A DNA stretch of 64,000 nt, from IMG/VR virus record IMGVR_UViG_3300032053_000002, positions 108,752-172,751 of that record; one strand, 5' to 3'. The position numbers were made by a program, and so were the translations under genes. This stretch comes from a virus. Under the pieces are notes generated by a model. That model ran no database searches and was not told where the DNA came from. It was given only the letters and a program-made list of their open reading frames with translations. Shown piece by piece: positions 1 through 18,704 of the stretch (its first letter is position 1; every line of letters starts with the position of its first letter).

Positions 1-332
1 AGTATTTTGGATACGGCTAATGCAACCGCAACCGATCTAGACATTCCGGCTTCGCAATTTATTAAAATATCGTTTACGTCATGTTTATATCTAAGAACGA
101 AATCTACAATACGTTTAGCAAGAAATTCCGAAAAATGAATAAGATCATTCATGTCTACTCGATAAAATGAATTAACGTCACCGTCATAATTTATATCATG
201 AAATTCCAGATACAAAACATCTTTACAAAAAGAAGTCTCAGGCAACCTATAAAATGGAGCTCCCGGAGAAAATATGGAAATGGCGACGAACGGAATTTTA
301 ATTCCATCGATAAATACCTTATCGGTAGCCAT
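1..332 (-). CDS. Partial CDS (runs off the window start); CX5R phosphatase-like protein (dual-specificity/tyrosine phosphatase signature CEAGMSRS)
   Basis: Minus-strand ORF starting at ATG 332 (MATDKVFIDG...), no stop before window edge; contains C-X5-R-S P-loop motif typical of Cys-based phosphatases; consensus promoter immediately upstream (368-396). Confidence 0.45.
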   Translation of the reverse strand, partial: MATDKVFIDGIKIPFVAISIFSPGAPFYRLPETSFCKDVLYLEFHDINYDGDVNSFYRVDMNDLIHFSEFLAKRIVDFVLRYKHDVNDILINCEAGMSRSVAVALAVSKI

Positions 333-367
333 ACGTTTATTTATCGCAACTATTTTATACATAGTAT

Positions 368-396
368 AATATAACCAATTTTTTATAGAAAGTCAA
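368..396 (-). promoter_or_regulatory. sigma70-like promoter, minus strand: TTGACT-N17-TATATT
   Basis: Reverse complement reads TTGACT ttctataaaaaattggt TATATT ahead of ATG at 332. Confidence 0.6.
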
Positions 397-399
397 CCG

Positions 400-585
400 C
401 TACTTTAACAGAAAATTCGCCAGCCTAATTATAAAAATAATTACGAATGCCCAGAATCCTATTCCGAAAGCAGTTCGGTCAAACACCGTCGATTTACCTC
501 GGGAATCAAAGATGATATACAACACCATTAGTCCACCGAATAAAAACAACAAACCAACACCGATATAAATTAATAAGTTTAACAT
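400..585 (-). CDS. small hydrophobic (membrane) protein, 61 aa
   Basis: ORF track; strongly hydrophobic two-helix sequence. Confidence 0.4.
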   Translation of the reverse strand: MLNLLIYIGVGLLFLFGGLMVLYIIFDSRGKSTVFDRTAFGIGFWAFVIIFIIRLANFLLK

Positions 586-596
586 TCCATTTCCTT

Positions 597-896
597 TTAA
601 CTTTTTATGTATGTTTTAGCAACATGCGCGATATCGCGAATTCGTTTAGTATGACCAGAAGTTTCCAATTTTTCAAGACAAACCACAATCTTTTCATAGT
701 CTAATTGCGGATAATAATATTTCATTTTAATCAGATTGACAATAGAAGATTCCACAACTCCGTCGTTATTGTGTTGTAATCCATTTAAATAATTAGCGAG
801 ACCCCGCTCAATTTTAATAGCCGAATCATTTACTTGCGACAATACTTGCGAAAACATTACGCTAATCAATATCACTACTAAAAAAAGTTTTTTCAT
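597..896 (-). CDS. secreted/signal-peptide protein, 99 aa
   Basis: N-terminal MKKLFLVVILISVMFSQVLS signal-like segment; AGGAG-like RBS upstream. Confidence 0.5.
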   Translation of the reverse strand: MKKLFLVVILISVMFSQVLSQVNDSAIKIERGLANYLNGLQHNNDGVVESSIVNLIKMKYYYPQLDYEKIVVCLEKLETSGHTKRIRDIAHVAKTYIKS

Positions 897-984
897 TTTC
901 TCTCTCCTTTTGTTTACATACTATTAAACGAAAAGAAAGAGTAAATGTTGTCACATCCAAGTAAACAATTGTAAAAAATTGTCA

Positions 985-1074
985 TGGCGGAGAGCATAGG
1001 ATTTGAACCTACGCTGCGTTACCGCAGGCCTCGCCTTTCCAGGGCGGCACAATACCTGATTCTGTCAACTCTCC
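985..1074 (-). tRNA. tRNA-Ser (anticodon GGA), type II with long variable arm, CCA encoded
   Basis: Reverse complement GGAGAGT..ACA/TGT D-stem..anticodon loop CTGGAAA..variable hairpin CTGCG/CGCAG..T-arm GTAGG TTCAAAT CCTAT..acceptor GCTCTCC-G-CCA. Confidence 0.8.
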
Positions 1075-1082
1075 ATCTTTCT

Positions 1083-1364
1083 TTACTGATCCAACTTTAA
1101 AAAATTATAAAATTTTTTTAACTCTCGCATAGTCATCACAACCCTTTTTACTCCATATACCACAGAATAAACGGCATCGAGTTCTGGAGTATAAACAAAA
1201 CTCTCGGATTCTTTTCCGGTATCTAATAAATGTTTATCTTTAATCCACACCATTTTTCCGTTAAACGGATATTTTTCAATAAATGTCCAACCATCTTTTC
1301 GTAATCGTCTCGGTGTAATTTTGAGCATCCATAAGTCTCCTTTGTATCGCGTTACGAATTTCAT
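1083..1364 (-). CDS. hypothetical protein, 93 aa
   Basis: ORF between two tRNA genes. Confidence 0.5.
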   Translation of the reverse strand: MKFVTRYKGDLWMLKITPRRLRKDGWTFIEKYPFNGKMVWIKDKHLLDTGKESESFVYTPELDAVYSVVYGVKRVVMTMRELKKFYNFLKLDQ

Positions 1365-1379
1365 TTTTTAAGTTTTTCG

Positions 1380-1466
1380 CGGAGAGCATAGGATTTGAAC
1401 CTACACGACTTTTCAGTCGACCTCGCATTTCGAGTGCGGTACAATACCGGATTCTGTCAACTCTCC
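1380..1466 (-). tRNA. tRNA-Ser (anticodon CGA), type II
   Basis: Reverse complement GGAGAGTTGACAG...anticodon stem CGCA/TGCG loop CTCGAAA...T-arm GTAGG TTCAAAT CCTAT...acceptor GCTCTCC. Confidence 0.8.
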
Positions 1467-1472
1467 ATAATA

Positions 1473-1649
1473 TTAATATTTCCTTTTAGATTTTCTGAAA
1501 GTCTCCAATACGTTCGGATCGGTTGTTGGTGATTTCTTTTCCGCCCACTTTTTCTCTTTATTTTCCGTCCACTTTGTTAATTGTTTATTCACAAAATATA
1601 AAATAAATACGGCGACTAAAACAATCAATCCAATAAATAAAACGTTCAT
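1473..1649 (-). CDS. small membrane protein (~58 aa; start trimmed to internal Met so it does not overlap tRNA)
   Basis: Track ORF 1473..1709 overlaps tRNA-Ser(TGA); internal ATG at 1649 gives MNVLFIGLIVLVAVFILYF... single TM helix plus Lys-rich tail. Confidence 0.4.
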   Translation of the reverse strand: MNVLFIGLIVLVAVFILYFVNKQLTKWTENKEKKWAEKKSPTTDPNVLETFRKSKRKY

Positions 1650-1676
1650 ATGTATTTCCTTTCTATTGGCTTTTCG

Positions 1677-1762
1677 CGGAAGATGAAGGATTTGAACCCT
1701 CGCGTCCAAAGGACGACCTCAGCTTTCAAGGCTGGTGCGATGCCGGACTCCGCCAATCTTCC
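1677..1762 (-). tRNA. tRNA-Ser (anticodon TGA), type II
   Basis: Reverse complement GGAAGAT..anticodon loop CTTGAAA (stem CAGC/GCTG)..T-arm GAGGG TTCAAAT CCTTC..acceptor ATCTTCC perfectly pairs GGAAGAT. Confidence 0.8.
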
Positions 1763-1766
1763 AATA

Positions 1767-2003
1767 CTATTTTTCTTTATCTTCTTTTCTTTTATTAAGG
1801 AATATTTTATTTATCAACGTCCATGCACTTAATCCAATAGAAATTAAAACTCCTAATTCCTTAACTACATCTAATAAATAATAAATGTTTAATTTTTGAA
1901 GTATGTATGTTAATAAAAACGCTCCCGCTGCCGCAGAAACTAAAAATTCTGTTACCGCGTGCCACATCCGTGACTTCCAAAACTTACCTGTTATGTTTTT
2001 CAT
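1767..2003 (-). CDS. small membrane protein, 78 aa
   Basis: ORF track; two hydrophobic segments. Confidence 0.45.
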   Translation of the reverse strand: MKNITGKFWKSRMWHAVTEFLVSAAAGAFLLTYILQKLNIYYLLDVVKELGVLISIGLSAWTLINKIFLNKRKEDKEK

Positions 2004-2039
2004 AACATAAACTCCAATTAGCGGAGAGTATAGGATTTG

Positions 2040-2125
2040 AACCTATGTGCCCAAAGGGCAACCTCGGTTTAGCAAACCGGTACAATACCTGACTCTGCCA
2101 ACTCTCCAGAACGATCTTTATTTCA
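2040..2125 (-). tRNA. tRNA-Ser (anticodon GCT), type II
   Basis: Reverse complement GGAGAGTTGGCAG...anticodon loop TTGCTAA...T-arm ATAGG TTCAAAT CCTAT...acceptor ACTCTCC. Confidence 0.8.
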
Positions 2126-2168
2126 TTTTTATCGCCATGGTGTTTCTCCAAATTTTTATATATAGATA

Positions 2169-2197
2169 AATATACGAAAATAAAATATACAAGTCAA
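2169..2197 (-). promoter_or_regulatory. sigma70-like promoter TTGACT-N17-TATATT, directed toward tRNA-Ser(GCT)
   Basis: Reverse complement TTGACT tgtatattttattttcg TATATT. Confidence 0.6.
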
Positions 2198-2213
2198 GTT
2201 ATTTGTTGAGTAT

Positions 2214-2684
2214 TTATAACTCAAAACTTTCTACTTCTTCTGGCGACAAATCATACACACTAGAAAATAGTGTTTTAAGATTGCTGTGCCAGTCGACTCC
2301 GTATTTCTTAACTATTATATAAAATTCGTTAATATCATGTCTTCTAATCCGATATTCCCATTCGCCAGATTTATCATTTGTTATCGCTAAAACATGCAAT
2401 AACTCGTGCCATAACAGTATCATTCGCTGTTCTTCTGTTATTTTATCCCAAAACTCCCCAGATAATTCTATAACATAATCGCATTCACCAAACACTTTTA
2501 ATAAGTTACTGGCTCTGGTGCATCTTCCGGCCGTTGTTTTGCTTATTGTGGGATAAACTAATAGATACTTTATTCTTGCGTTACCTATTTGAATTAGTTT
2601 ATCTTTGATAACTTCTTCCGCCAAATTTTCCACATCTGGCGACTTAACATACTCTTTTTTCTTAATTTTTGTTGTGTTGGACAT
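2214..2684 (-). CDS. SprT-like zinc metallopeptidase (HExxH: WHELLH)
   Basis: 156 aa; HELLH zinc-binding motif with downstream acidic residues; size and layout typical of SprT/DUF45 family. Confidence 0.5.
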   Translation of the reverse strand: MSNTTKIKKKEYVKSPDVENLAEEVIKDKLIQIGNARIKYLLVYPTISKTTAGRCTRASNLLKVFGECDYVIELSGEFWDKITEEQRMILLWHELLHVLAITNDKSGEWEYRIRRHDINEFYIIVKKYGVDWHSNLKTLFSSVYDLSPEEVESFEL

Positions 2685-2741
2685 GACATACCTCCGTTAA
2701 TATATTACTATAAGTTAAACGAAATTTTTCAAAAAAAGTTC

Positions 2742-4244
2742 CTATTTCGAATCCAAAACATCTCGTACCCGTTTAAGTATAGTCAGTGGAGTAACCGGTT
2801 TTTCAATAAAATTAATATTTTCGTGTAGTATTCCATAATGTACTATTGTATTATCAGTATATCCTGACATATATAATGTTTTAATTTTTGGGTATTTTTT
2901 GATTAGATTTTCTACTAATTCTACTCCATTCATTTTTGGCATAACGACATCAGTTAATACAATGTCGATTGGAACATTAAGTGTTTCCACTTTTTCTAAT
3001 GCGATCACACCATTTGAAGCCATAATTACGGTATATCCAGAATTTTCTAAACGGTCTTTTATAAGATTTCTAACTTCTAGTTCATCTTCTACTAATAATA
3101 CTGTTTCGGTTCCTCTTATATCGTTTTCATTTATTTTATCAACCAAAAAGCGTTTTACGGCAATATCATCAGTTGAAGGAAAATAAATATAAAATGTTGC
3201 TCCGTGCCCAGGTTCACTTTCTGCCCAAATATGTCCATTACTTTGTTTAACAATGCCGTATACCACAGGCAAGCCAAGACCGGTTCCTCTTCCCAATGGT
3301 TTAGTCGTAAAAAATGGTTCAAATAATCGATCCTTTACTTCTTTAGTCATTCCTACGCCAGTATCTGAAATAGAAATCAAAACAAATGAACCTCTTTTAT
3401 CAAATGGTTCGATGGATTCAACGTTTTCAGTTTTTATTACCAATTTTCCCCCATCTGGCATAGCATCAATCGCGTTTATACAAATATTTATTAAAACTGA
3501 TTGAAATTGAACCGTATCTATTTTAATATTTTTAATATCTGGGGATAGATTTAAAGAAAAATCAATGTCTTCTTTTATAAACTGACTTAAAAAATCTTTT
3601 TGTTCGGATAAAAATTGATTTGGGTCAACAGTTTCCATTTTCATCATTTGTTTTTTACTAAATGCTAAAAGTCGTTTTACAAATTTTTCTGCCCGTTCAC
3701 TCGCACGAAAAATTTTTCCAACTTTAACTTGTTCATTTGAATCTGGAACTAATTTATTCATTAGCTCTTCGCTATATCCTTTTATAACGGTTAAAATATT
3801 ATTAAAATCATGTGCGATACCGCCCGCTAATAAACCAACGGCTTCTAATTTAGAAGTATTTTTTAATTGGTCTTCTAAAACAGTTTTTTCATTTTCAAGG
3901 CACGTTATATCTCTAACATAAACAATCCCAAGCGTTTCATTGTCATGATTAAAAAATTTTGCATATACTTCGCATGAAAATGAACTACCATCTTTTTTTC
4001 TATTAATAGTTCTAGTAAAGAATTTTCCTGTTTTTTTACCGATTTCCATTAATTTAGGCAGAGTCATTTTATAATATTCTTCCGAAGTTAAATCATGTAC
4101 ATTTAATATAGATTTAAATTCTTCGCGTGTATATCCGTATAATTCAATGGCAGTTTGATTACAATCTAAAATAGTACCATCTAATTTTTCTAAAAAAATT
4201 GCGTCCGGTGACGTATCAAGTATTAAATCAAAAAATCTTTTCAT
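2742..4244 (-). CDS. hybrid sensor histidine kinase with C-terminal receiver domain (PAS - HisKA - HATPase_c - REC)
   Basis: 500 aa; PAS-like N-term; H-box HDFNNILTVIKGY; G-box ISDTGVGM...GTGLGL; receiver with LLVEDE...D(TDVVMPKMNG) phospho-acceptor Asp. Confidence 0.8.
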   Translation of the reverse strand: MKRFFDLILDTSPDAIFLEKLDGTILDCNQTAIELYGYTREEFKSILNVHDLTSEEYYKMTLPKLMEIGKKTGKFFTRTINRKKDGSSFSCEVYAKFFNHDNETLGIVYVRDITCLENEKTVLEDQLKNTSKLEAVGLLAGGIAHDFNNILTVIKGYSEELMNKLVPDSNEQVKVGKIFRASERAEKFVKRLLAFSKKQMMKMETVDPNQFLSEQKDFLSQFIKEDIDFSLNLSPDIKNIKIDTVQFQSVLINICINAIDAMPDGGKLVIKTENVESIEPFDKRGSFVLISISDTGVGMTKEVKDRLFEPFFTTKPLGRGTGLGLPVVYGIVKQSNGHIWAESEPGHGATFYIYFPSTDDIAVKRFLVDKINENDIRGTETVLLVEDELEVRNLIKDRLENSGYTVIMASNGVIALEKVETLNVPIDIVLTDVVMPKMNGVELVENLIKKYPKIKTLYMSGYTDNTIVHYGILHENINFIEKPVTPLTILKRVRDVLDSK

Positions 4245-4266
4245 TGCCGATCTCCTTCAATAAAAG

Positions 4267-4346
4267 AACCCCGAGCGGGATTTGAACCCGCCTTTTCAGC
4301 TCCATCTACGAATAGAAGTTTAGGAAACTCCCTCGGCTATCGGGGC
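4267..4346 (-). tRNA. tRNA-like element (type-II-like, degenerate D-arm; anticodon unresolved, possibly CCU)
   Basis: Reverse complement has acceptor GCCCCGA/TCGGGGT, U8 A9, perfect T-arm GCGGG TTCAAAT CCCGC and a long variable region, but no canonical D-stem; a hairpin GGAGT/ACTTC with loop TTCCTAA lies too close to the 5' end. Confidence 0.4.
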
Positions 4347-4350
4347 AAAA

Positions 4351-4617
4351 TTATTTTTTCCTCTTTTTTCTGGCCGCTGGCGGTATAGGTGGACGAGAAG
4401 TAGATGGCGGATAATTTTTTCCACCCTTAACAGTTTTGCCTTCGGTCAATAATGGAAAGTCGGGTTTAGAATTTTTCACGACTTCCGATAAAGCATCAAC
4501 CACAACTTGCTCCATTGTTTTTCCAACTTTGTTGGCATACGCTTCCAACTTTTTAAATAAGTCATTATCCAAATCGATTTCCACGTCCACATACTTTTTC
4601 ATTTTTTCTTTTTTCAT
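4351..4617 (-). CDS. hypothetical protein, 88 aa, Lys/Pro-rich C-terminus
   Basis: ORF track. Confidence 0.5.
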   Translation of the reverse strand: MKKEKMKKYVDVEIDLDNDLFKKLEAYANKVGKTMEQVVVDALSEVVKNSKPDFPLLTEGKTVKGGKNYPPSTSRPPIPPAARKKRKK

Positions 4618-4644
4618 AACTCTTTCCTTTATTTAATATAAATA

Positions 4645-5322
4645 TCATTTATTTCCGAAATATTTATTTATTTTATCATTTATTGTTTCCACCATTTTCA
4701 TATTTTCGAATATTATGTCGCGAAACTCTTTTAAGTTTTTCGCCGTTGGAAATTTCACGGTTTTCTTCTGGCGAAAATAATACTCATTTTCTCTGGTAAT
4801 ATTTAAAACGCCTATTTTCTGAAATGGAATGTGAAAGCGCTCAATCATTTGCGGTTTATCATCCAATAAATAATCACCGTTAAATAATTGTTTCTCTTTG
4901 GTAAAAATCAAATCATCATATACATTATCAACATTTTCATTCAACCATTCTATTGTCGCAATTCTCGCCGCCGTTGTTTCCTGATGCGTAGAAATGACTA
5001 TTCGACAACCTGGTATTTTGTTTTTTAATATGACGATATGATTTTTCCACTCATCCACCGATATTAACGGCTTCGCATTTCTGAAAATGTCGTAACTGGT
5101 TTTCGGGTTTTCAAAGAATACCGTGTTGCATAACTCTTCCGCCTTCTTGGCTACTTTTGGATCGAACATTCCATCAAATCCCCAACCCGTTGATTTGCCG
5201 CGAGGCAATTCATACTTTTTAAGTTCCGGATGAACTTTATAAAGCACTACCATCGCATAACCGATGAAATTTCTTAAAACGCCGTCGCAATCATGATGTA
5301 TAGTTATTATTTTATTTTCCAT
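4645..5322 (-). CDS. HAD-superfamily 5'(3')-deoxyribonucleotidase-like protein
   Basis: 225 aa; N-terminal HAD motif I ITIHHDCDGVL (DxDx[TV]); this family is common in large phages. Confidence 0.5.
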   Translation of the reverse strand: MENKIITIHHDCDGVLRNFIGYAMVVLYKVHPELKKYELPRGKSTGWGFDGMFDPKVAKKAEELCNTVFFENPKTSYDIFRNAKPLISVDEWKNHIVILKNKIPGCRIVISTHQETTAARIATIEWLNENVDNVYDDLIFTKEKQLFNGDYLLDDKPQMIERFHIPFQKIGVLNITRENEYYFRQKKTVKFPTAKNLKEFRDIIFENMKMVETINDKINKYFGNK

Positions 5323-5323
5323 T

Positions 5324-5596
5324 TTACTTTTCTTCCAGTTTAATGTCGTGATATATTTTGTTAATTATATTTAATATATGTTTTGATATAGTTATTTCCA
5401 TATCCGCAACTATAAGCCTTCTTAACTTGCCAATGGATGAATAAATGGCTCGAATATCATTTTCAGTATAAAAGTTTACTGAATTTGACGAACGCAAAAA
5501 CGTCCACCCGGGTGCATTACTCAACAGCCAATCAATTTTATTTAAAATAATATTTTTATCAGCGAAATCAAATATTCTATAATAAGTAAAACTCAT
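5324..5596 (-). CDS. hypothetical protein, 90 aa
   Basis: ORF track, overlaps start/stop with neighbours (ATGA-type coupling). Confidence 0.5.
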   Translation of the reverse strand: MSFTYYRIFDFADKNIILNKIDWLLSNAPGWTFLRSSNSVNFYTENDIRAIYSSIGKLRRLIVADMEITISKHILNIINKIYHDIKLEEK

Positions 5597-6009
5597 GTAG
5601 CTATCACTTTCGAAACAAGTTCTAGTGCTTCTCGCAACGATAACAGTTCTCCTTTTTCATTTATCATATTTTCTCGTGCATACTTTACCGCGTGAATTTT
5701 TCCATGTAATTTATAAATGTGAAAAATGTGTAATTTATGTATTTCATCTTCGGGCATTTCTTTTATCGTTACCCCCTTTTCGGTCATATACTTTTCTATC
5801 AATTTGTGTTTTTTATAAATAAAATTCGCACGCGCCATATCTTCAATAGAAAAACGAGAATTTTTTTCTATTTCATCAACTATTTTTAGAATGTCTAACA
5901 AATCTGGCGGAAATAACCACGAATCGTCGTCTTCATAATTTTTTTTAATTAGTACGGTAACCGTACGCAATTTTTTTAAAATTTCTGTTTTCTTTTCGGC
6001 TTCTTCCAT
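5593..6009 (-). CDS. hypothetical protein, 138 aa
   Basis: ORF track. Confidence 0.5.
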   Translation of the reverse strand: MEEAEKKTEILKKLRTVTVLIKKNYEDDDSWLFPPDLLDILKIVDEIEKNSRFSIEDMARANFIYKKHKLIEKYMTEKGVTIKEMPEDEIHKLHIFHIYKLHGKIHAVKYARENMINEKGELLSLREALELVSKVIAT

Positions 6010-6020
6010 TTTCTAACAAC

Positions 6021-6353
6021 TTAATTTTCGTTCAATATATCAAGTCTTTCTGGCGCAGTAACATTCCAAATAGATTTGCTCTCTAAATAAATACTTTTTC
6101 GCCACTCTTTAAGCATAGTGATAGCCGTCTTATAATCTTCATCTATAAGAACCCATAAAATTCGTCTGGCTTCAAGTCCTCGATAATTATCAAATCTCGC
6201 AAATATTTGCGATAAATCATCTTCCACCAGTTTAGAATTTCCGGATGATATTTCCTGTATCCACGTTGTTATGTCGTGAATAAGCTTTGGATTTTGCCTA
6301 CTCCGTTTTGTTCGAAACGTCATTTTTGCTGCGTCCATATTTTTTACTCCCAA
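6021..6353 (-). CDS. hypothetical protein, ~100-110 aa (true start probably at an internal Met)
   Basis: ORF track; 5' end overlaps next gene so start likely downstream. Confidence 0.45.
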   Translation of the reverse strand: MGVKNMDAAKMTFRTKRSRQNPKLIHDITTWIQEISSGNSKLVEDDLSQIFARFDNYRGLEARRILWVLIDEDYKTAITMLKEWRKSIYLESKSIWNVTAPERLDILNEN

Positions 6354-6579
6354 TTATTTTTTTATGTTGTTTATTTCTAATGTCTTCTATGTCGATTTCT
6401 TGCTTCATTTCAACTTCAATTTGAAGTTTCATTCTAAATGGATTTGTCATACTCCATGTTCTTTTGACCGAAATAATATTATATTTTTTCTTTAAATTAT
6501 TCAATACTTTATTCACATTAAAAAAATAAGTATTAAATGATATTTCAAAGGTGTATCTTTTCTGAATTATTTTATCCAT
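6298..6579 (-). CDS. hypothetical basic protein, 93 aa
   Basis: ORF track; consensus promoter just upstream (6585-6613). Confidence 0.45.
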   Translation of the reverse strand: MDKIIQKRYTFEISFNTYFFNVNKVLNNLKKKYNIISVKRTWSMTNPFRMKLQIEVEMKQEIDIEDIRNKQHKKIIGSKKYGRSKNDVSNKTE

Positions 6580-6584
6580 AATAC

Positions 6585-6613
6585 AATATACTAAAATGAA
6601 CGTTAAAAGTCAA
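6585..6613 (-). promoter_or_regulatory. sigma70-like promoter TTGACT-N17-TATATT
   Basis: Reverse complement TTGACT tttaacgttcattttag TATATT. Confidence 0.55.
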
Positions 6614-6621
6614 GTAATATT

Positions 6622-7011
6622 TTATTCGTCAGATTCTTCGGATATGTTATCAATAACGTCTAAATCAAAATTATCTATTAAAAAATGCCACGAAGGCGTT
6701 CTGTCTTCCAGTGGAACGGTAGATAGTATTTTACCAACATCGAGACGACCAACTTTAAACGCAGTATACTCTTTATCACTATCAATATATTCTATCAGCT
6801 CCGGCACATTCGCGCGGTTGCATATATATTCCAACAGAAGTGAAAATATATCAAGCTCCCACAAGAAAGTATCCAGTCCCTCAACCTGTTCCTTAACAAA
6901 ATCTGAAAATTCCTTCGCGTCTATTGCCGATCCTTCCATCCATTCAATGAATTCATCTAATTGGTTATCATCAAGGTTAAACAATTCTTTTATTAAGTCA
7001 TCCATAATCAT
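6622..7011 (-). CDS. highly acidic hypothetical protein, 129 aa
   Basis: ORF track; Asp/Glu-rich throughout. Confidence 0.5.
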   Translation of the reverse strand: MIMDDLIKELFNLDDNQLDEFIEWMEGSAIDAKEFSDFVKEQVEGLDTFLWELDIFSLLLEYICNRANVPELIEYIDSDKEYTAFKVGRLDVGKILSTVPLEDRTPSWHFLIDNFDLDVIDNISEESDE

Positions 7012-7307
7012 GCCGCATCTCCTTTTTGGATTTTTGTTACTATTCCCAGTTTGTCAAATTGTTTTTTTAAATTATTTATATAATCATTGTCGCCGTCGGC
7101 GATAATGGTTTCTCCGGTATAGTGTGCTTCAGCGGCTCGTTTCAGCGCGTCATCAAACTCCATATCGCAGACTTCCACCAGCGCGTCCATGATATATTCC
7201 GCTTCATTGGTATCATCGTTCACCAGAACCAACACGGCGAAAGACCTATCAATGTTTATATCGTGTTTTATTCCTTCATCATTTAAAATACTCGTCAACT
7301 CTTTCAT
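7008..7307 (-). CDS. ClpS-like ATP-dependent Clp protease adaptor
   Basis: 99 aa; VLVLVNDDTNEAEYIMDALVEVC...HYTGE pattern resembles the ClpS core (VxLxNDDxxxxxFVxxxL...H..G). Confidence 0.45.
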   Translation of the reverse strand: MKELTSILNDEGIKHDINIDRSFAVLVLVNDDTNEAEYIMDALVEVCDMEFDDALKRAAEAHYTGETIIADGDNDYINNLKKQFDKLGIVTKIQKGDAA

Positions 7308-7384
7308 TTTTTATTTACTCCTTAATTTTTGTAACATTCTAATAAAACTCTCGTATATTAATATAAATAGAAGAGAACGATGAT

Positions 7385-7519
7385 ATGAAACACTTTCTAA
7401 TTTATATAGTATGTTTTTTAATTTCATTTCCATTTGCGTATATAATTGTCGCGGATATAATCGATATTTATAAACGATTTCACTCGTATCTGTATATAAT
7501 TATATCCAAAATATTTTAG
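7385..7519 (+). CDS. small hydrophobic peptide, 44 aa (plus strand)
   Basis: ATG 7385, in-frame TAG 7517-7519; MKHFLIYIVCFLISFPFAYIIVADI...; sits in a divergent intergenic region. Confidence 0.25.
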   Translation: MKHFLIYIVCFLISFPFAYIIVADIIDIYKRFHSYLYIIISKIF

Positions 7520-7528
7520 GAGAATATT

Positions 7529-7846
7529 ATGCATTCGCTAGTACCTATTGCGTTTTTTGCAATGATTGTTCTAATAGTCAAATTTATTTCTGACAACAAG
7601 ATACGAAAAAAAATCATAGAGGCCGGAAATCTTAACCAGAGTTTAAAATACCTCTGGGAAAAGTCATACGCACGTAAACCGTTACAATCACTTAAAGTTG
7701 GAGCAATTGCTGTCGCGATTGGACTAATCTTTTTAGTCGGCTCAATTAGCAAATTTGAAGAGTTGGTTATCGCCGGTGCGTCTCTAGTTTCAGTTGGAAT
7801 CATATACATCATATATTATTTTATTGAACATAAAAAAGAAAATTAA
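7529..7846 (+). CDS. membrane protein, 105 aa (one of very few plus-strand genes)
   Basis: AGGAG RBS 8 nt upstream of ATG; two or three TM helices. Confidence 0.55.
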   Translation: MHSLVPIAFFAMIVLIVKFISDNKIRKKIIEAGNLNQSLKYLWEKSYARKPLQSLKVGAIAVAIGLIFLVGSISKFEELVIAGASLVSVGIIYIIYYFIEHKKEN

Positions 7847-8058
7847 AAACCGATTTCTTTAGATAGTTGCGGAGTCCATCCACCAAGTTCTCGAAATCGA
7901 TATGATATTAGGTTCTGGATTTCAACCTCTTCTTCCAATTTTTCGCGGAAATTAGTTTCGTCGATGAAGTTCATCCCCGGACTCGGCAAAAATCTTTGCC
8001 AAATCGCCAATCGAAATTTATCCGCATTCATGACTTGCTCTTTTGTTGGATAATTCAT
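7843..8058 (-). CDS. hypothetical protein, 71 aa
   Basis: ORF track. Confidence 0.45.
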   Translation of the reverse strand: MNYPTKEQVMNADKFRLAIWQRFLPSPGMNFIDETNFREKLEEEVEIQNLISYRFRELGGWTPQLSKEIGF

Positions 8059-8609
8059 TTTAAATCCTCTTTTTTTATATTATGTTTTTTTATTATTTTA
8101 TTTATTCCTTCAATCGCACTAGCACGAAATACATCGTTTTCCTGTAATTCAGTTAACGCGCTAGATATATAAAAACTTTCGTAATCCGTATCTGTTCTTT
8201 CATCAATTTTACTTAGTAATTTCGACAACGCATTGATAATAAATTCTTTTTTATATTTTATTATAACGGTTATCCATTCCGGAATAGCCATATCATATTT
8301 TTTAAAATGTTCTTTCGCCATCGGCACGTTCTCGATATATAATATATCATTGTTACCCACAACTCTAAAATATATGTTTTCAATTCTGTGTAATAGTAAT
8401 ATAGAATCCGCTACAATTTTTTCTGAATTTCGTAACATTTCAGGAATAGATTTATATTTCGAAAATGGATACGGAACTTTATCCATTTTTACGGCCAAAT
8501 CAAATCTTCCCGTCCCACCCAAAAAGCAATCTTCACTATCCGTAATTTCTACTATTCCCGGAATAGCCGTGCACATTTGCGGTTGGTCTTTAAATCTAAA
8601 CGCTCTCAT
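8055..8609 (-). CDS. paralog-family protein, long form (N-terminal M[KR]A[YF][KR]F...IEI[ST]D motif)
   Basis: 184 aa; N-terminus similar to 15381..15992 and the frameshifted 13046..13562 gene; C-terminal INKIIKKH resembles the LNxIYKKY motif. Confidence 0.55.
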   Translation of the reverse strand: MRAFRFKDQPQMCTAIPGIVEITDSEDCFLGGTGRFDLAVKMDKVPYPFSKYKSIPEMLRNSEKIVADSILLLHRIENIYFRVVGNNDILYIENVPMAKEHFKKYDMAIPEWITVIIKYKKEFIINALSKLLSKIDERTDTDYESFYISSALTELQENDVFRASAIEGINKIIKKHNIKKEDLK

Positions 8610-8730
8610 GTTTGTTTAGAAAACCAATTCTTCTGATTTTTCGTTTTTATTGGGAATCGAATTCAGCATTTCCAATTCTTCTTCCAAAGTTAAATAAAAC
8701 TTGTAATCGTCATTAAACATTTTTATATCC

Positions 8731-9159
8731 TCATTTTTTGTATTTTTTATAAATCGTATTCAATTGTTTAACATCTTCTTCTGTTAGTTTTGTAGATAAA
8801 AACCGAGTTGTACTGATTCTTCCGGTGCCGTCTATTTGAACGAATTTGTCTTTCAACATTTTCACATATTTTTTGTCGGCTCTAAACATCGAATCTCCCA
8901 TTCCACCCGTTGTTTTAGTTAATACTTCATACAAACGATACACCCTCAGCCATATATAAAACTTGTCGCAAATGTATTTAAGTCTTTCCAGTTGATTGCG
9001 AAATGTGTAATTAGTGCTTAACATCTGATTTAACAATATAATGTTAATTCTATTGTCAGGACCGACTTCAATGTCGGTAATTTTTATTTCGTCGACATAA
9101 TAACTATACCTTTGCAGATTTGACGTTGGCGAATTCCTAATTAATGTGGTTTTTTTCAT
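8731..9159 (-). CDS. paralog-family protein (CDKFYIWLRV core, C-terminal LNTIYKKYKK)
   Basis: 142 aa; shared motifs with at least 12 other ORFs in the window. Confidence 0.6.
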   Translation of the reverse strand: MKKTTLIRNSPTSNLQRYSYYVDEIKITDIEVGPDNRINIILLNQMLSTNYTFRNQLERLKYICDKFYIWLRVYRLYEVLTKTTGGMGDSMFRADKKYVKMLKDKFVQIDGTGRISTTRFLSTKLTEEDVKQLNTIYKKYKK

Positions 9160-9164
9160 TCTAT

Positions 9165-9617
9165 CTATCTATACTTTTTATAAATTTCATTTAACTTAAA
9201 AATATCGGCTTCTTCTATACTATTGACTCTAGAAAGAAACCAGGTCATTAACTTTCCACTGTTCATGTTGGCAATACCATCTTTTAATTCTTTTACATAA
9301 TTCAACGTTCCAACTTTAGCATTTTTAGAAATTAAAAGTTCGTATAAAGTATGCAATCGTAGCCATATATAAAACTTATCACACGCATACAAAACTTCTT
9401 CCGTAATTTTTTGTTTATCTCCGCCAAAATGAGAGATCGGAACCGTATAATCTATATTAAATATTTGATTTAGTAATGAAATCCTAATGGCCGGCCCCAG
9501 CGACTTTTCACCCCTATCAAATACTTCGATTTCTGTAATGCAATTCCCGCGTGAATGGTACTCATACACGGCGGATTTTGAATCGATATTAATTTCAACT
9601 AATTTAGATGTTTTCAT
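9165..9617 (-). CDS. paralog-family protein (CDKFYIWLRL, C-terminal LNEIYKKYR)
   Basis: 150 aa. Confidence 0.6.
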   Translation of the reverse strand: MKTSKLVEINIDSKSAVYEYHSRGNCITEIEVFDRGEKSLGPAIRISLLNQIFNIDYTVPISHFGGDKQKITEEVLYACDKFYIWLRLHTLYELLISKNAKVGTLNYVKELKDGIANMNSGKLMTWFLSRVNSIEEADIFKLNEIYKKYR

Positions 9618-9643
9618 TTTTTATCTTATCTTTTAATATAACT

Positions 9644-9705
9644 AATATAATCATTCCCGAACTACCAGTCAAGAATTATTTTTAAATATTGTGATTTTTT
9701 TCACA
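9644..9705 (-). promoter_or_regulatory. sigma70-like promoter TTGACT-N17-TATATT with upstream perfect TGTGA-N6-TCACA palindrome (9690-9705)
   Basis: Reverse complement TTGACT ggtagttcgggaatgat TATATT; palindrome TGTGATTTTTTTCACA. Confidence 0.6.
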
Positions 9706-9720
9706 TACCCGAATCCTTAC

Positions 9721-10236
9721 CTAATATGGGTTCGCACCTTTATACTTTTTATAAATTTCATTTAACTTAAAAATATCGGTTTCAGTTATACGCGCCGCCG
9801 TAATAGTCAGTCTTGTGTTTTTATCTTTAATGAATCGGCTTTTCAATTCATTTACATAACGCAAATCGTTCGCAAATGAAGACAAATCCACACTTACTCC
9901 GATAGTTATTAAATCGGCGCCAACATAATATCTTTCTATCATCTTGTAAAGTTTGTCTAATCGTCGCCAGATATAATATCTATTACACGTTATCAAGCAA
10001 TTATCCTGATTTGAAACCGCAAAAGTATAGTCGTGTAATTCCAAACGTTCATTTAATTCAGGAATCAATATTTCGTAGCAACTCATTGTTTCTCGGATGT
10101 CAACGCGAAAAAGTTGATATTTACCCATACGATATAGATATACTCGCCAGGTACCGAACAACGCTCCAGTTATTATCTGATAAGATTTGTCAGTATATAA
10201 TAAACTTCTATTGCCGATTTTTATTATACTTCGCAT
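9721..10236 (-). CDS. paralog-family protein (CNRYYIWRRL, C-terminal LNEIYKKYKG)
   Basis: 171 aa. Confidence 0.6.
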   Translation of the reverse strand: MRSIIKIGNRSLLYTDKSYQIITGALFGTWRVYLYRMGKYQLFRVDIRETMSCYEILIPELNERLELHDYTFAVSNQDNCLITCNRYYIWRRLDKLYKMIERYYVGADLITIGVSVDLSSFANDLRYVNELKSRFIKDKNTRLTITAARITETDIFKLNEIYKKYKGANPY

Positions 10237-10720
10237 ATATTCCGTTTAATTTTTTAATAGTTGATTTGCATATTTTTGGAGTGTGTCCTGCAAAATTAGT
10301 ATAAATTGCGCCCTTAGAAATATGAGAAAACCCCACTTTTAGTTTGGAAACATATCTTTTGTCTTTCAAATCAAAATTTTTCGCGGAAGAATTTATTAGC
10401 TCAAAAAGATTCTGTAGCCTTTTCCAAAAATAAAATCTATTACATATTCTTAAACACTCCGCAAGACACTCCGACGGTATTGCAAAAAAATCATTGTTGG
10501 GATCAGAAGAAAGCGTCGGCACGTATATGGTATAGTCAGGTATCGATAAATATTTTTGGAGTTCCATTATTTGTATTTTATTAAACGTATGACAAATATC
10601 AACTCTCGAAATAAGTACATCGTTTACTTTATAATGATATACGTACCAGAGATCATCCAGGGTATCAAACACGGTAGTAATATAGTCCAATTTTCTATTA
10701 TTAATTTCGGAGTTTTGCAT
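10208..10720 (-). CDS. paralog-family protein (CNRFYFWKRL, C-terminal LNGIYAKYNK)
   Basis: 170 aa; overlaps neighbours by a few codons (operon-like). Confidence 0.6.
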   Translation of the reverse strand: MQNSEINNRKLDYITTVFDTLDDLWYVYHYKVNDVLISRVDICHTFNKIQIMELQKYLSIPDYTIYVPTLSSDPNNDFFAIPSECLAECLRICNRFYFWKRLQNLFELINSSAKNFDLKDKRYVSKLKVGFSHISKGAIYTNFAGHTPKICKSTIKKLNGIYAKYNKNRQ

Positions 10721-11195
10721 ATATTTTATTCAGTTTTATAATGTCTTCTTTAGTTAAAATCGGCCCGGTCCGGGCTTGAAAATCGGTGAATAATATCCTA
10801 TTTTTATCCTGTATGGCGAATTTATGCATTAAAGATACGACATATTGCTGCATTTTCGCCATTTCATCCGAACCATCTTTACTATAAACGGTTGCGAGAT
10901 AAAGGTTATTTAACCTGTACCATATATAAAATCTATTGCATATTTTTAAGTATTCGTCCATTGATTGTGCGACTTTTTTTACTCGTATACAATAATCTGG
11001 TCTGTCATAATATTCATTTAAGAAAATTATTTTTATCAATCCCCCAGGATCTAAAGAAATGTAAACATTAGTTATGGCGACATCATCTACTTTATATTCA
11101 TATACGTCCCACTGGGTAATCGTGGCGACCTTTCCCGTAGAATCTTTCACTATTTCACTACGACCACCAACTTTTGTTAAAGTTTTATTTTCCAT
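10701..11195 (-). CDS. paralog-family protein (CNRFYIWYRL, C-terminal LNKIYAKLRN)
   Basis: 164 aa. Confidence 0.6.
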   Translation of the reverse strand: MENKTLTKVGGRSEIVKDSTGKVATITQWDVYEYKVDDVAITNVYISLDPGGLIKIIFLNEYYDRPDYCIRVKKVAQSMDEYLKICNRFYIWYRLNNLYLATVYSKDGSDEMAKMQQYVVSLMHKFAIQDKNRILFTDFQARTGPILTKEDIIKLNKIYAKLRN

Positions 11196-11697
11196 ACGGC
11201 GGTCTATATATTTTATAAAGTTTATTTAAAAGTTTAACTTCGTTGGGGACTAGTCCCAATTTTGAGTGGTGTTCTATGTGGTACGGAATTTTATTCAATA
11301 TTCCACCGCGCGGACATTTCACAAAAAGGTGTTTTTTTAAATTTTCAACATACCGGAGGTTCTCTTCGTGTATTCCAAGTTCGTGTCTGGTTAGTTCATT
11401 AACTACACTATAATTAGACATCATAACAGACAATAATTGTAGTCTATACCAAATATAAAATACATCACACGCGACGTTTAAATTACCGGTAATAGTTTGA
11501 TGTGGTCTCGGAGTTATTTTGATACTATAACTTTGGTCGCCTATAATATCGTTTAATATCTGGATTCGAATTACCCAACTATTGTTGTGATTTTGGCTCA
11601 AATAAACACGAGTTAGAAAGTTGCCGTTAGTATCGTAATTGTACTCGAATAAATCTTCGTCTCGCTCGTGTCTAATATAAACTAATTTTTTATCCAT
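11185..11697 (-). CDS. paralog-family protein (CDVFYIWYRL, C-terminal LNKLYKIYRP)
   Basis: 170 aa. Confidence 0.6.
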   Translation of the reverse strand: MDKKLVYIRHERDEDLFEYNYDTNGNFLTRVYLSQNHNNSWVIRIQILNDIIGDQSYSIKITPRPHQTITGNLNVACDVFYIWYRLQLLSVMMSNYSVVNELTRHELGIHEENLRYVENLKKHLFVKCPRGGILNKIPYHIEHHSKLGLVPNEVKLLNKLYKIYRPPYGK

Positions 11698-11774
11698 TTT
11701 TTCCCGCGGGTTTCAATTATAAAATAAAATCTTGCTTGCCGTGCAAATCTTGCCCGGACACTTTTTGCAACCAA

Positions 11775-11890
11775 TATATTTCGCAACCATATTTATTAAC
11801 TTCTCGCTCGCAACCATATTTATTAACTTCTCGCTCGCAACCATATTTATTAACTTCTCGCACGCAACCACATTCATTAATCTTTCGTTA
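11775..11890. repeat. 27-bp direct tandem repeat, 3 near-perfect + 1 degenerate copy (cgcaaccatatttattaacttctcgct)
   Basis: Visible by eye; the track ORF 11713..11895 (MVASEKLIN x3) is produced by this repeat. Confidence 0.8.
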
Positions 11891-12044
11891 CGCAACGAAC
11901 ACTTTTCTTTAATCTAATCTCAATATCTATTAATTTTTCGCATAGTGGGCACTTAAATGGAAACCAATTCCAATTCATCATCGTATTTTTTTCACCGCAG
12001 TGAGGACACGTAAAATCGGCCGTTATCTGTTTAATTTTAATCAT
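11877..12044 (-). CDS. small zinc-ribbon protein, 55 aa (CPHCG...CPLCE)
   Basis: ATG at 12044, TAA at 11877-11879; two CxxC pairs; below the 60-aa track cutoff. Confidence 0.3.
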   Translation of the reverse strand: MIKIKQITADFTCPHCGEKNTMMNWNWFPFKCPLCEKLIDIEIRLKKSVRCVTKD

Positions 12045-12207
12045 AATAACACCTCAATCAATAATATCCAAAGACTAACTAAAATAATATTTAAAATCGC
12101 TCCCATAGGATTAAACTTGAATTTTTCAGTATACCAACCGTATCCTTATGCTGCCGTACACGCTCCAATAGTAAAACATCCCGCAAAAATCAAAAGTCGG
12201 TTCATAT

Positions 12208-12825
12208 TTAACCCTTGCTAAAAAACTCTTTCATTAAATAACTTATTATTAATTTACTCTTATTCTTAATATGCAATTTAAGTTCGGAGTGTACTTCTAA
12301 ACCAATCCTAATACGCAAACATTCAACTGGCGACAAACATTTCTTTGCTAAAGTCATTATATAATTACGTGCCGCTTCTTCAGTATGATTCTCATTTTCT
12401 TTTATACAAAAATGATGCCCTACCTCATGCGCAAGAGTATATATATCAAAATCTTTTATCAATTCAATACATGGATATTCTGGTATTGTTTTTATGGCAA
12501 ACCCTTTCGGAAATCCAAACGTCTTTTCAATATCTCTGATTTGATTATATAATTCTTTTCCTTTATCATTCAAATAAACATATCTCCCACATGCGGCTTG
12601 AAGCATCGTTTCTTTATCGGCTAAAGGCGATATATTATTTAGTTTATATATATCGTCATAAAGTTTTATTGGGATGCCTTCCTGTTCGCAAATCCCTAAC
12701 AGCTTGCTTCTGAATTTCTCTAATACCTTTTTTTCTTCTTTCCTGTTTAACTCAAAGAAAGAAATTTTCATTGAAAATATTAAACACGCCCATGTAATTA
12801 TGGCGCAAATAATAATAATTATCAT
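12208..12825 (-). CDS. membrane-anchored ImmA/IrrE-like zinc metallopeptidase (HEVGHH)
   Basis: 205 aa; N-terminal TM helix; HExxH motif AHEVGHHF followed by conserved Glu-containing region. Confidence 0.45.
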   Translation of the reverse strand: MIIIIICAIITWACLIFSMKISFFELNRKEEKKVLEKFRSKLLGICEQEGIPIKLYDDIYKLNNISPLADKETMLQAACGRYVYLNDKGKELYNQIRDIEKTFGFPKGFAIKTIPEYPCIELIKDFDIYTLAHEVGHHFCIKENENHTEEAARNYIMTLAKKCLSPVECLRIRIGLEVHSELKLHIKNKSKLIISYLMKEFFSKG

Positions 12826-13064
12826 AATATTTTCTCCGGAAACAAAATTTTGCGTCGTCTTTCGAGTTCCTTTTTGGTATCAGACGGAATCAGTTGCACT
12901 TTCATTACTCTGTCGCCGTTTCTCCAGCATGCTTTCCACGATTTATTAGCAGATTTTGCGTGTTCTTTTACGGCCTGTCGCCGAGTGAGCCACGTTTTTG
13001 GGTAGAATCCATCTTTACCGATGATTGCCCACATAATGATTTTTTTCATGTTGTGTCTTTCCAT
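12822..13064 (-). CDS. hypothetical basic protein, 80 aa
   Basis: ORF track. Confidence 0.45.
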   Translation of the reverse strand: MERHNMKKIIMWAIIGKDGFYPKTWLTRRQAVKEHAKSANKSWKACWRNGDRVMKVQLIPSDTKKELERRRKILFPEKIL

Positions 13065-13562
13065 ATTTTATTTAATTCCTTAATATCATTTAGAGATAGT
13101 TTTCCGTTATTCATAAAGTTTTTATATATATTTATAGTATCAGCTGAGCGAATCGTTTCAAATAACTTTGCAAATTTATCGTAAATACGATTGAACTTTT
13201 CAATGTGTTCTATATTAGATATATGAAATTCGACTGCAGAATGATTTGTCTTTGTTTGATATGCTATTTCATCTTTAATTTCTTTAATGTCCGAATATAC
13301 AAATATATAATTTGTGTTCCGATTTCCATAAAAAAATGTTTTTTCGATTCGGTATAGGTCATTTGTATCATTTACGAATACTAAATGCGGATGATGATAT
13401 ATTTCGCGTATTAACGAAAAATGCTGAAATACATCGGGAAGTTTTGTTTTTTTTATATCCGATAGGTAAATATACGGGTTCATCGCATTCTGTAACTTCT
13501 AATATTCCGGGAATGGTGTGTATATACTTATACTTTTTTGTAAATTCAAATGTATTTAACAT
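13046..13562 (-). pseudogene. paralog-family gene interrupted by a frameshift in an A8 homopolymer (track ORFs 13368..13562 and 13046..13483 are its two halves)
   Basis: N-terminal half MLNTFEF...IPGILEVTECDEP matches the N-termini of 8055 and 15381; downstream half continues the family sequence and ends with LNDIKELNKIWKDTT; the frame change falls at the tttttttt/aaaaaaaa run near 13448-13455. Confidence 0.45.
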
Positions 13563-13587
13563 AATTTATTTACTTTTCAATTTAAAG

Positions 13588-13770
13588 TTAGCCGTCAATC
13601 GTATTGTCGACATATCCGGTTACTTTATGCCAATATAACCAAATATTCGCCTCTTCTGCTGATTTGAACTTTGGAGCACCTGGAAACGCTTCTTCGTTAT
13701 TATCGTTTCGTGTTAGTTGCCCAGTTTTTAAGTTCAGAGTGTAATAGTAATTTTCTTCTTGATTTTCCAT
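13588..13770 (-). CDS. hypothetical protein, 60 aa
   Basis: ORF track; two tandem consensus promoters upstream. Confidence 0.4.
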   Translation of the reverse strand: MENQEENYYYTLNLKTGQLTRNDNNEEAFPGAPKFKSAEEANIWLYWHKVTGYVDNTIDG

Positions 13771-13797
13771 GATTTTCTTTCTTTTTATTTATAATTA

Positions 13798-13826
13798 AAT
13801 ATAACAAATTTAATACTCAAAGTCAA
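13798..13826 (-). promoter_or_regulatory. sigma70-like promoter TTGACT-N17-TATATT (a second, weaker copy lies near 13880-13895)
   Basis: Reverse complement TTGACT ttgagtattaaatttgt TATATT. Confidence 0.55.
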
Positions 13827-14031
13827 CTGTTATTTTTTGTTGTAAATTACTATAATAGTAACGGCCGTTATTTCAAATATAATACTTAAAGTCAACTGTT
13901 ATTTGTTATAAACTATTATAATGATGACGGTTACCTGTTATACTGCTAATAGGTTATCGTTAGGGTATTGTATTCTCTATTTATTATTAGTGTATTATTA
14001 TTTTAAATTTTAATTTAGGGGAGAAAATATT

Positions 14032-14727: not shown

Positions 14728-14737
14728 ATTTGGAATT

Positions 14738-14776
14738 AAAGATCCCCGCTTTTTTTCACGCGGGGATTTTTGTTTT
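14738..14776. terminator. rho-independent terminator, probably bidirectional (ATCCCCGC-loop-GCGGGGAT with flanking T/A runs)
   Basis: 8-bp GC-rich inverted repeat followed by TTTTTG on plus strand and preceded by AAAG. Confidence 0.65.
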
Positions 14777-16416: not shown

Positions 16417-16421
16417 ATTCC

Positions 16422-18674: not shown

Positions 18675-18704
18675 TCTATCTTTCCTTCTTTAATTGTATA
18701 CCTA

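Follow-up and report, generated by a model that had tools for sequence, protein, structure and literature searches.

A candidate phosphotransfer module of a soluble hybrid histidine kinase and a stand-alone receiver in a probable jumbo phage lineage

Histidine kinases of the HisKA class work by an established chemistry, in which a dimer undergoes ATP-dependent phosphorylation on a histidine and the phosphoryl group is transferred from histidine to aspartate. Phages are known to eavesdrop on signals by means of arbitrium peptide systems and captured quorum-sensing receptors. Viral two-component proteins have also been described: in the C. difficile phage phiCDHM1, agrC is present but agrA is not, and signaling to a regulator of the host was proposed (PMC4124054), soil phages carry phoR as an auxiliary gene (PMC10987575), phages of ammonia oxidizers were reported with two-component proteins (bioRxiv 10.64898/2026.05.02.722434), and EsV-1, a virus of a brown alga, has hybrid kinases (Delaroque 2000, cited in PMC6163359). 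A comparative study of jumbo phages mentions just a divergent receiver, which it never links to kinases (PMC7824862). Here we analyzed a 64,000-nucleotide stretch of viral DNA (the window; positions 108,752 to 172,751 of IMG/VR record IMGVR_UViG_3300032053_000002) that encodes a 500-amino acid (aa) hybrid histidine kinase, together with related contigs, one of which extends the genome past the window edge to a 119-aa stand-alone receiver. From sequence comparison we propose, with moderate confidence, that the locus is a phage-borne phosphotransfer module, in which a functional cytoplasmic hybrid kinase, kept for a long time by a jumbo phage lineage, would act through protein-protein output. 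The phage AgrC and PhoR proteins differ from this kinase in being membrane-bound, non-hybrid members of other subfamilies from temperate or small phages, and EsV-1 differs in having a eukaryotic host; none of these kinases has been reported to come with a stand-alone receiver that the virus itself encodes and that a phage lineage conserves. Our literature searches turned up no study in which a hybrid kinase and a stand-alone receiver were conserved together across such a lineage. Both the protein family and phage-borne kinases are already known, and the point of interest is the lineage-level conservation of both components.

Among proteins of solved structure, the top sequence match to the phage kinase was a fragment of CckA (PDB 5idj, E = 2e-46) comprising the dimerization and histidine phosphotransfer (DHp) domain and the catalytic and ATP-binding (CA) domain. 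CckA of Caulobacter and Brucella (5idj and 5idm) resembles the phage protein in its DHp-proximal PAS domain with a DIT motif, in the sequences AHDFNN and, within the CA domain, YGIVKQS, and in its C-terminal receiver. It differs in being an alphaproteobacterial protein with a membrane anchor and tandem PAS domains that belongs to the ChpT-CtrA pathway, whereas the phage kinase is soluble, has one PAS domain, and was seen with neither ChpT nor CtrA; six-frame searches of the window gave no ChpT-like DHp/CA homolog. The CckA models of NCBIfam ranked first for the phage kinase, at 360 (NF046020) and 286 (NF046026) bits. Because these scores are far below the 1000-bit equivalog cut-off, the protein is regarded as CckA-like and not as a CckA ortholog. 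ThkA of Thermotoga maritima (PDB 3a0r) aligned to residues 2-359 with E = 8e-26. The ThkA/TrrA pair and the phage kinase and receiver are alike in having no DNA-binding output domain, but ThkA is not a hybrid kinase and its gene is next to trrA, whereas the phage kinase carries a fused receiver and its putative receiver partner is encoded 6.9 kb away. The overall architecture of the phage protein is that of orphan hybrid kinases from Desulfobacterota, Acidobacteriota, Planctomycetota, and other groups, which are 35 to 50% identical over the core and are in some cases followed by a histidine phosphotransfer (Hpt) or receiver gene. Compared with these cellular proteins, usually 600 to 870 aa long with several PAS or GAF domains (two to four PAS domains as a rule), the phage kinase is minimal, carries a lysine (K197) found in no other homolog aligned, and falls in a viral clade.

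The 500-aa open reading frame (ORF) was confirmed as a soluble PAS-HisKA-HATPase_c-REC hybrid histidine kinase, the domain order given in the original prediction, which had been made from the letters alone. With the curated cut-offs of Pfam as the criterion, all four domains scored above threshold (Table 1), PAS_9 matching residues 13-114 at 46 bits, and the same search gave no output domain on the protein, again as predicted. The stop-to-stop frame reaches just 4 codons beyond the ATG, the N terminus coincides with the start of the single PAS domain, and no transmembrane helices were found. The PAS domain terminates in D112-I113-T114, the motif that leads into the J helix, and a DIT(E) motif is known from CckA-like kinases (PMC5026420). 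Inspection of the PAS domain by eye recognized no cofactor motif of the LOV or FixL type. An AlphaFold2 model (mean predicted local distance difference test score, 81) displayed the canonical succession of PAS, long J-DHp helix, CA, and receiver: a five-stranded PAS core is followed by helix 114-164, which runs uninterrupted from the PAS domain into the DHp domain, the ATP lid of the CA domain is disordered, and the receiver adopts a (beta/alpha)5 fold. Structural matches to this model were PAS-kinase chimeras, CckA, LvrB, and ShkA.

The codons of the catalytic residues were checked individually. The phospho-acceptor H145, within AHDFNN, is encoded by CAT at 3810-3812 and was invariant in alignments, and it is accompanied by D146 (H+1) and N149 (H+4). 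The ATP-binding boxes are complete (N253/N257; G1, D294-x-G296-x-G298; F box, F308EPFFTTK; G2, G320TGLGL), and the fused receiver retains E386, D387, the phospho-acceptor D432 (codon 2949-2951), S460, and K482. Thus, the catalytic histidine and aspartate, whose absence the original prediction had named as telling against a kinase, are both present, and the domain search was positive. Among 141 positions conserved in at least 90% of 119 database homologs, 120 are kept by the phage kinase. Strain variants differ by 4 synonymous and 2 to 3 conservative changes (V206I, A341V, and R398S), none of them catalytic. Overall, these sequence features indicate that the kinase is intact and very probably functional.

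A homolog search covering 5.8 billion proteins gave more than 8000 family matches. Apart from strain variants, the best were cellular PAS/GAF hybrid kinases about 43% identical overall and up to 50% over the core, and a search with one genome per species returned Acidobacteriota, Planctomycetota, Gemmatimonadota, Desulfobacterota, Nitrospirota, and other phyla at 35 to 47% identity. Assignment of a donor or host was attempted and abandoned, as the nearest cellular homologs, 35 to 50% identical, come from more than 10 phyla. Strong Shine-Dalgarno sites are a loose argument against a Bacteroidota host. The original prediction had called such kinases rare in phages, which was only partly right: the protein matched phrog_5982 over residues 6-499 (E = 9e-100), its receiver region matched phrog_731, family relatives occupy at least 89 loci in IMG/VR by an alignment-based scan, and the AgrC and PhoR kinases have been published. 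Most of these loci are GC-rich and are probably cellular flanks or mis-binned contigs. The families concerned (phrog_5982, phrog_10912, phrog_857, and phrog_731) are labeled "unknown function" or "kinase," and the phrog_5982 profile spans 1030 positions, its members being about twice the size of the phage kinase. In a tblastn search of deposited phages the kinase gave weak matches, mostly to bacterial-looking contigs filed as phage, which offered no guide to rarity.

The alignment-based scan was also needed to reveal a syntenic relative, as a scan of IMG/VR with the single protein had returned only an unrelated receiver. This relative is a viral contig of 161,620 bp (IMGVR_UViG_3300017971_000200), from which two loci, L064 (GC content, 0.33) and L241, were examined. 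Around the kinase, L064 and the window have six further proteins in common, and the order NT5C, small ORF, tRNA-like element, kinase, PhageMetallopep, four tRNA-Ser is the same in both. The L064 kinase is a 753-aa protein with extra PAS domains, 45% identical over residues 74-498, and the proteins common to the two phages are 30 to 59% identical. When neighbor-joining was applied to 386 columns of the DHp-CA-REC core from 152 sequences (200 bootstraps), the window and L064 kinases were sisters in 130 of 200 bootstraps and lay within a clade of five or fewer sequences in 182 of 200. Their next neighbor was the kinase of locus L065, on the 250-kb viral contig IMGVR_UViG_3300037086_000360, and Desulfobacterota sequences were weakly placed beside the viral clade. 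Since raw distances from the window kinase to the best bacterial sequences are similar to those within the viral pair, monophyly of the phage kinases is moderately, not strongly, supported, and we consider synteny a stronger argument than the tree for common descent of the window and L064 kinases. Synteny and monophyly together argue for long-term retention in a phage lineage and not for a recent passenger. Across loci L065 and L067, the 250-kb contig has three or more hybrid histidine kinases, one of them with periplasmic-binding, HAMP, and Cache-type sensor domains, and they lie amid genes for HNH, DUF5131, RNA-ligase, and PnuC proteins. On L064, an NAD+ salvage cluster (2303-6335; NAPRTase, NMN adenylyltransferase-like protein, NAD synthase, and nicotinamidase) lies upstream of the kinase block, with a PnuC-like transporter elsewhere in the locus.

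The original prediction had also stated that no partner regulator was nearby. Inside the window this stands: the 63 other ORFs of positions 1-36 kb include no Hpt, receiver, or helix-turn-helix/DNA-binding regulator family, and profile searches in six frames over the whole 64 kb gave no further REC, DHp, CA, or PAS domain besides those of the kinase. It does not stand for the genome. A contig that is 100% identical to window positions 1-2969 and continues leftwards (ERZ27247916:k141_5371473, here L236) encodes an intact receiver on the kinase strand, 4,128 nucleotides (nt) past window position 1; from the stop codon of the kinase, it lies 6,868 nt downstream. The protein is a complete single domain without a DNA-binding domain. 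Counterparts occur in the same gene block of the L064/L241 phage, where the receiver is 11.8 kb downstream of the kinase, and of a third related phage (L246). In all three the receiver comes after an RNaseH-like gene, is 119 to 123 aa long, and retains every catalytic residue. The best solved relative of the 119-aa receiver is TrrA (E = 4e-9), whose kinase partner, ThkA, is among the matches to the phage kinase. For the exact kinase protein and for the exact stand-alone receiver alike, the longest contig on record is 292,723 bp, and the same genome is present in at least 8 assemblies from ENA, Logan, and JGI. Directly after the receiver, each of the three phages has a small ORF (Table 1). Those of the window phage and the L064 phage are 41% identical and Cys-rich (C-x2-C ... 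C ... C), with no Pfam domain and no relatives outside the three-phage group, and we regard this protein as a candidate effector of the receiver. Two to 5 kb past its receiver, L241 encodes in a row (12137-15027) a T4 Rnl1-type RNA ligase, an HD_5 (HD-GYP-type) protein, and an HD+AAA_33 polynucleotide kinase (PNK)-like protein, the HD_5 protein being 3 kb from the receiver. This row suggests a tRNA-repair set plus a possible cyclic di-GMP (c-di-GMP) phosphodiesterase; the visible 73 kb of the window phage has no counterpart of the RNA ligase, HD-GYP-type, or PNK-like proteins.

In the mechanism that we propose, the kinase would dimerize through its PAS and DHp domains, and an intracellular cue read by the single PAS domain would set the balance between kinase and phosphatase activity. 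ATP bound in the HATPase_c domain would phosphorylate H145, from which the phosphoryl group would move to D432 of the fused receiver. Its next stop would be D57 of the 119-aa receiver, reached by one of two routes: from the DHp domain directly, the fused receiver being a competitor, or by way of a host Hpt. That the phosphoryl group ends on the phage's own receiver is an evenly balanced proposition, and we infer the partnership of the two proteins. Since the small receiver has no DNA-binding domain, output would be by protein-protein contact, in which the receiver might act on a host or phage target in the manner of CheY, DivK, CpdR, or Spo0F. The likely purpose would be to bring infection or the physiology of the host into line with cell state. 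A more elaborate version, in which the PAS hybrid kinase, the CheY-like receiver, and the Cys-rich effector form a self-contained phage circuit, perhaps responsive to c-di-GMP, that reads host state and decides the timing or mode of phage development, we regard as unlikely. If true, it would be a virus-owned two-component decision system and not a borrowed piece of a host one.

The c-di-GMP element of that version comes from comparison with CckA, in which the nucleotide cross-links the CA and DHp domains via Y514, G515, K518, and W523 together with G318 and R374 (Dubey et al., PMC5026420) and turns the enzyme to phosphatase mode; the same study reported these positions to be retained by about 2000 kinases from several phyla (PMC5026420). 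In the phage kinase, four of the six switch positions are identical (G141, Y329, G330, and K333, corresponding to G318, Y514, G515, and K518). By analogy, binding of c-di-GMP at a CckA-type CA site is a possible additional input to the kinase.

Several observations weigh against the proposed module. At the c-di-GMP site, W523 of CckA is not kept, the phage kinase having H338 at a position that is variable across the CckA-like family. K197 (codon 3654-3656) stands where all 119 homologs and the L064 kinase have arginine; in the 5idj alignment it corresponds to R374 of CckA, part of the secondary c-di-GMP site, and an R374A mutant of CckA is kinase-deficient with its basal phosphatase activity then dominant (PMC5026420). 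By analogy, the output of the phage kinase may be weakened. The kinase and receiver genes are not an operon pair, as the gap of 6.9 kb (11.8 kb in the relative) holds about 20 genes and the tRNA array, and their co-conservation may be merely general regional synteny. Membership of the stand-alone receiver in the receiver subtype of the kinase family was considered and rejected, the family profile giving 53.4 bits against 53.5 for generic Response_reg; because the two profiles score equally, nothing in the receiver sequence marks it as cognate. Furthermore, transfer from a hybrid kinase to a second receiver normally requires an Hpt, and none was found in about 73 kb of genome. The Hpt family (PF01627) had no match among the 63 ORFs of window positions 1-36 kb, 38 ORFs of L064, or 10 ORFs beyond the window edge; jackhmmer seeded with a neighboring Hpt found none in the window or the viral loci, and a scan for the HxxKG motif gave no credible candidate. 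For positions 36-64 kb the negative rests on the single-seed jackhmmer and motif searches, and Hpt domains are divergent. The last point concerns the phage itself: the 64 kb of the window and the roughly 45 kb of related loci inspected showed no gene for a capsid, portal, or terminase protein.

The missing Hpt would be expected if the kinase, as the original prediction had suggested, instead plugged into a host relay and handed its phosphoryl group via a host Hpt to host regulators, reprogramming the transcription or behavior of the host, the phage receiver being unrelated. Hybrid kinases generally signal through Hpt proteins, and orphan status is normal for the CckA-like family in bacteria, where most members would have to find their partners in trans and a separate receiver lies within 3 kb of the kinase at only 14 of 80 genome loci. 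One close cellular homolog is followed by an Hpt gene and another by a receiver gene; the former is the GAF hybrid kinase P0106 of a Desulfobacterota metagenome-assembled genome (L234 964-3775), which has the highest core identity (50%) and a stand-alone Hpt directly after it. Signaling of phiCDHM1 AgrC to a host regulator, as proposed, would be a precedent (PMC4124054). A host relay nevertheless gives no reason for three related phages to conserve a stand-alone receiver in one and the same block, and at about 43 to 50% identity to cellular homologs the surface of the fused receiver may no longer fit a given host Hpt; overall, we hold this account to be plausible but rather less likely than the proposed module. 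A related idea is that the protein drains a host pathway, with its receiver taking phosphoryl groups from a host Hpt or relay and its DHp domain hydrolyzing them so that the pathway, perhaps one tied to stress, development, or defense, is shut down during infection. The DxxN sequence that follows the H-box histidine is the phosphatase motif of HisKA kinases, and in the phage protein it is intact. The K197 substitution, read in light of the R374A mutant, and the four conserved switch residues, read in light of the reversal of CckA by c-di-GMP, point the same way (PMC5026420). Lysine for arginine is conservative, however, and the L064 kinase retains the arginine, so that the substitution is no trait of the lineage; moreover, a pure phosphatase would have no use for the ATP-binding apparatus, all of which is conserved. 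A phosphate sink therefore appears improbable.

Two further accounts would deprive the kinase of any phage role. It could have been taken up from a bacterium and be a neutral passenger not yet degraded, as the family is huge and promiscuous in bacteria, jumbo phages carry many acquired genes, and the sensor region is shorter than in most homologs. This is highly improbable, as the gene is syntenic and monophyletic with that of a phage whose common proteins are so diverged (30 to 59% identity), its catalytic residues are all intact, and strain changes are mostly synonymous or conservative. Alternatively, the DNA could be a bacterial chromosome, a plasmid, or another large element with an ordinary cellular kinase. 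In favor of this are the unseen structural genes, the sparse family matches (10 Pfam and 12 PHROG families among the 63 ORFs of window positions 1-36 kb), and the high-GC, cellular-looking flanks of many IMG/VR kinase loci. Against it, 102 of 115 ORFs of at least 45 codons are on the minus strand, tightly packed, mostly short, and rich in ORFans; the matched families include ClpS, Lar, DUF2958, and HNH endonucleases, beside PhageMetallopep, the CobS-like ATPase, a 750-aa protein found in huge phages, and tRNA arrays; and the syntenic IMG/VR relative has the T4-type RNA ligase, the PNK-like protein, and the NAD salvage cluster. No ribosomal or housekeeping genes were seen. Taken together with the 292.7-kb contig, this indirect evidence from gene layout, gene content, and the syntenic contig strongly suggests that the window comes from a phage, as had been predicted, and from one with a genome of jumbo phage size, and we consider a non-phage origin quite improbable. 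Window positions 1-20000 had no nucleotide match among deposited phages.

The kinase gene lies between the tRNA-Ser array and a tRNA-like element, as the original prediction had stated, with one gene, PhageMetallopep, separating it from the array. The tRNA-like element, missed by ARAGORN at default settings and called at relaxed ones, retains the acceptor stem and T arm of a tRNA and has an anticodon-like hairpin with the loop UUCCUAA; the D arm is collapsed, and there is a variable insert of about 20 nt. Its L064 counterpart (8935-9015, plus strand; loop CUCCUAA) lies 20 nt before the kinase start codon, the distance being 20 to 22 nt in both phages. Between the two, 8 of 25 predicted pairs are compensatory, and the element is identical in the strain variant. 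From its fixed position just upstream of the ribosome-binding site of the kinase, the element may be an RNase P/Z-type processing signal that would set the 5' end of the kinase mRNA. The 88-aa ORF upstream of it, with a Pro- and Lys-rich tail, is the sole DNA-binding candidate near the kinase; it was rejected as a conserved partner, as the ORF at the corresponding place in L064 cannot be aligned with it and lacks a ribbon-helix-helix match. Taking these results together, the earlier interpretation as a whole is partly supported.

Elsewhere in the two genomes, a full set of tRNA-Ser isoacceptors is also found in L064 (15002-17867, plus strand), there together with tRNA-Cys. The GC content of the window is raised at 14000-26000 (0.38 to 0.42, compared with about 0.33 elsewhere), an interval that includes the CobS-like ATPase, the 750-aa protein, and tRNA-His. 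A sugar/glycan biosynthesis cluster of nearly 28 kb occupies positions 36154-63803 on the minus strand; its genes encode a GDP-mannose 4,6-dehydratase, a DegT-family aminotransferase, a carbamoyltransferase, and a B12-binding radical SAM enzyme, as well as glycosyltransferases, methyltransferases, and epimerases.

Table 1. Coordinates of the features discussed; positions are those of the window unless a locus is named
Feature	Location	Strand	Details
Hybrid histidine kinase gene, 500 aa	2742..4244	-	ATG start; PAS-HisKA-HATPase_c-REC; soluble
PAS sensor domain, residues 4-114	3903..4235	-	Pfam PAS_9 (1-102/103), PAS
HisKA/DHp domain, residues 138-199	3648..3833	-	Pfam HisKA, 35 bits (cut-off 26.9)
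HATPase_c catalytic domain, residues 243-357	3174..3518	-	Pfam, 82 bits
Receiver (REC) domain, residues 382-494	2763..3101	-	Pfam Response_reg, 70 bits
Shine-Dalgarno AAGGAG, 7 nt before kinase ATG	4252..4257	-	Read from sequence
tRNA-like RNA directly upstream of kinase gene	4267..4346	-	Rfam tRNA, 27.5 bits, below the 29-bit threshold
88-aa ORF upstream of tRNA-like element	4351..4617	-	Weak ribbon-helix-helix/Arc match: phrog_876, E = 9e-6; phrog_582, E = 3e-5
NT5C-family 5'-nucleotidase gene, upstream neighbor of kinase	4645..5322	-	Pfam; 39% identical syntenic copy in L064
PhageMetallopep gene, downstream neighbor of kinase	2214..2684	-	Pfam, E = 9e-25; 59% identical syntenic copy in L064
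Four tRNA-Ser genes (GGA, CGA, TGA, GCT), downstream of kinase	985..2107	-	Among small ORFs; ARAGORN, Rfam; stand-alone receiver about 5 kb farther on
Stand-alone receiver, 119 aa	L236 7097-7456	Kinase strand	Response_reg, 53.5 bits; D9, D10, D57, S85, K103
Receiver of relative, full-length	L241 10001-10366		53% identical; order Metallophos, NADAR, small ORF, RNaseH-like, receiver
Receiver of third phage	L246 1868-2239		45% identical; after RNaseH-like, with a GIY-YIG endonuclease inserted between
Small ORFs directly following receiver, 78-85 aa	L236 7462-7710; L241 10370-10627; L246 2271-2507
750-aa protein adjoining CobS-like ATPase	16422-18674		Common to a 484-kb uncultured phage and Microcystis phage Mel-JY01
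CobS-like AAA_5 ATPase	18853-20160		60 relatives on IMG/VR contigs up to 250 kb
tRNA-His	23754-23828

The location of the receiver gene is a caution for window-based scans: the candidate partner seemed absent because the window ended short of it. Two-component phosphotransfer, the principal sensory system of bacteria, has hardly been examined as a phage-owned function, the reports to date being entries in catalogues or lone kinases that lack a partner, and the small size and solubility of this protein pair (500 and 119 aa) make it suited to direct tests of phosphotransfer. If the two proteins were to signal between themselves or feed a host relay, very large phages would sense intracellular conditions with hardware of the bacterial type.

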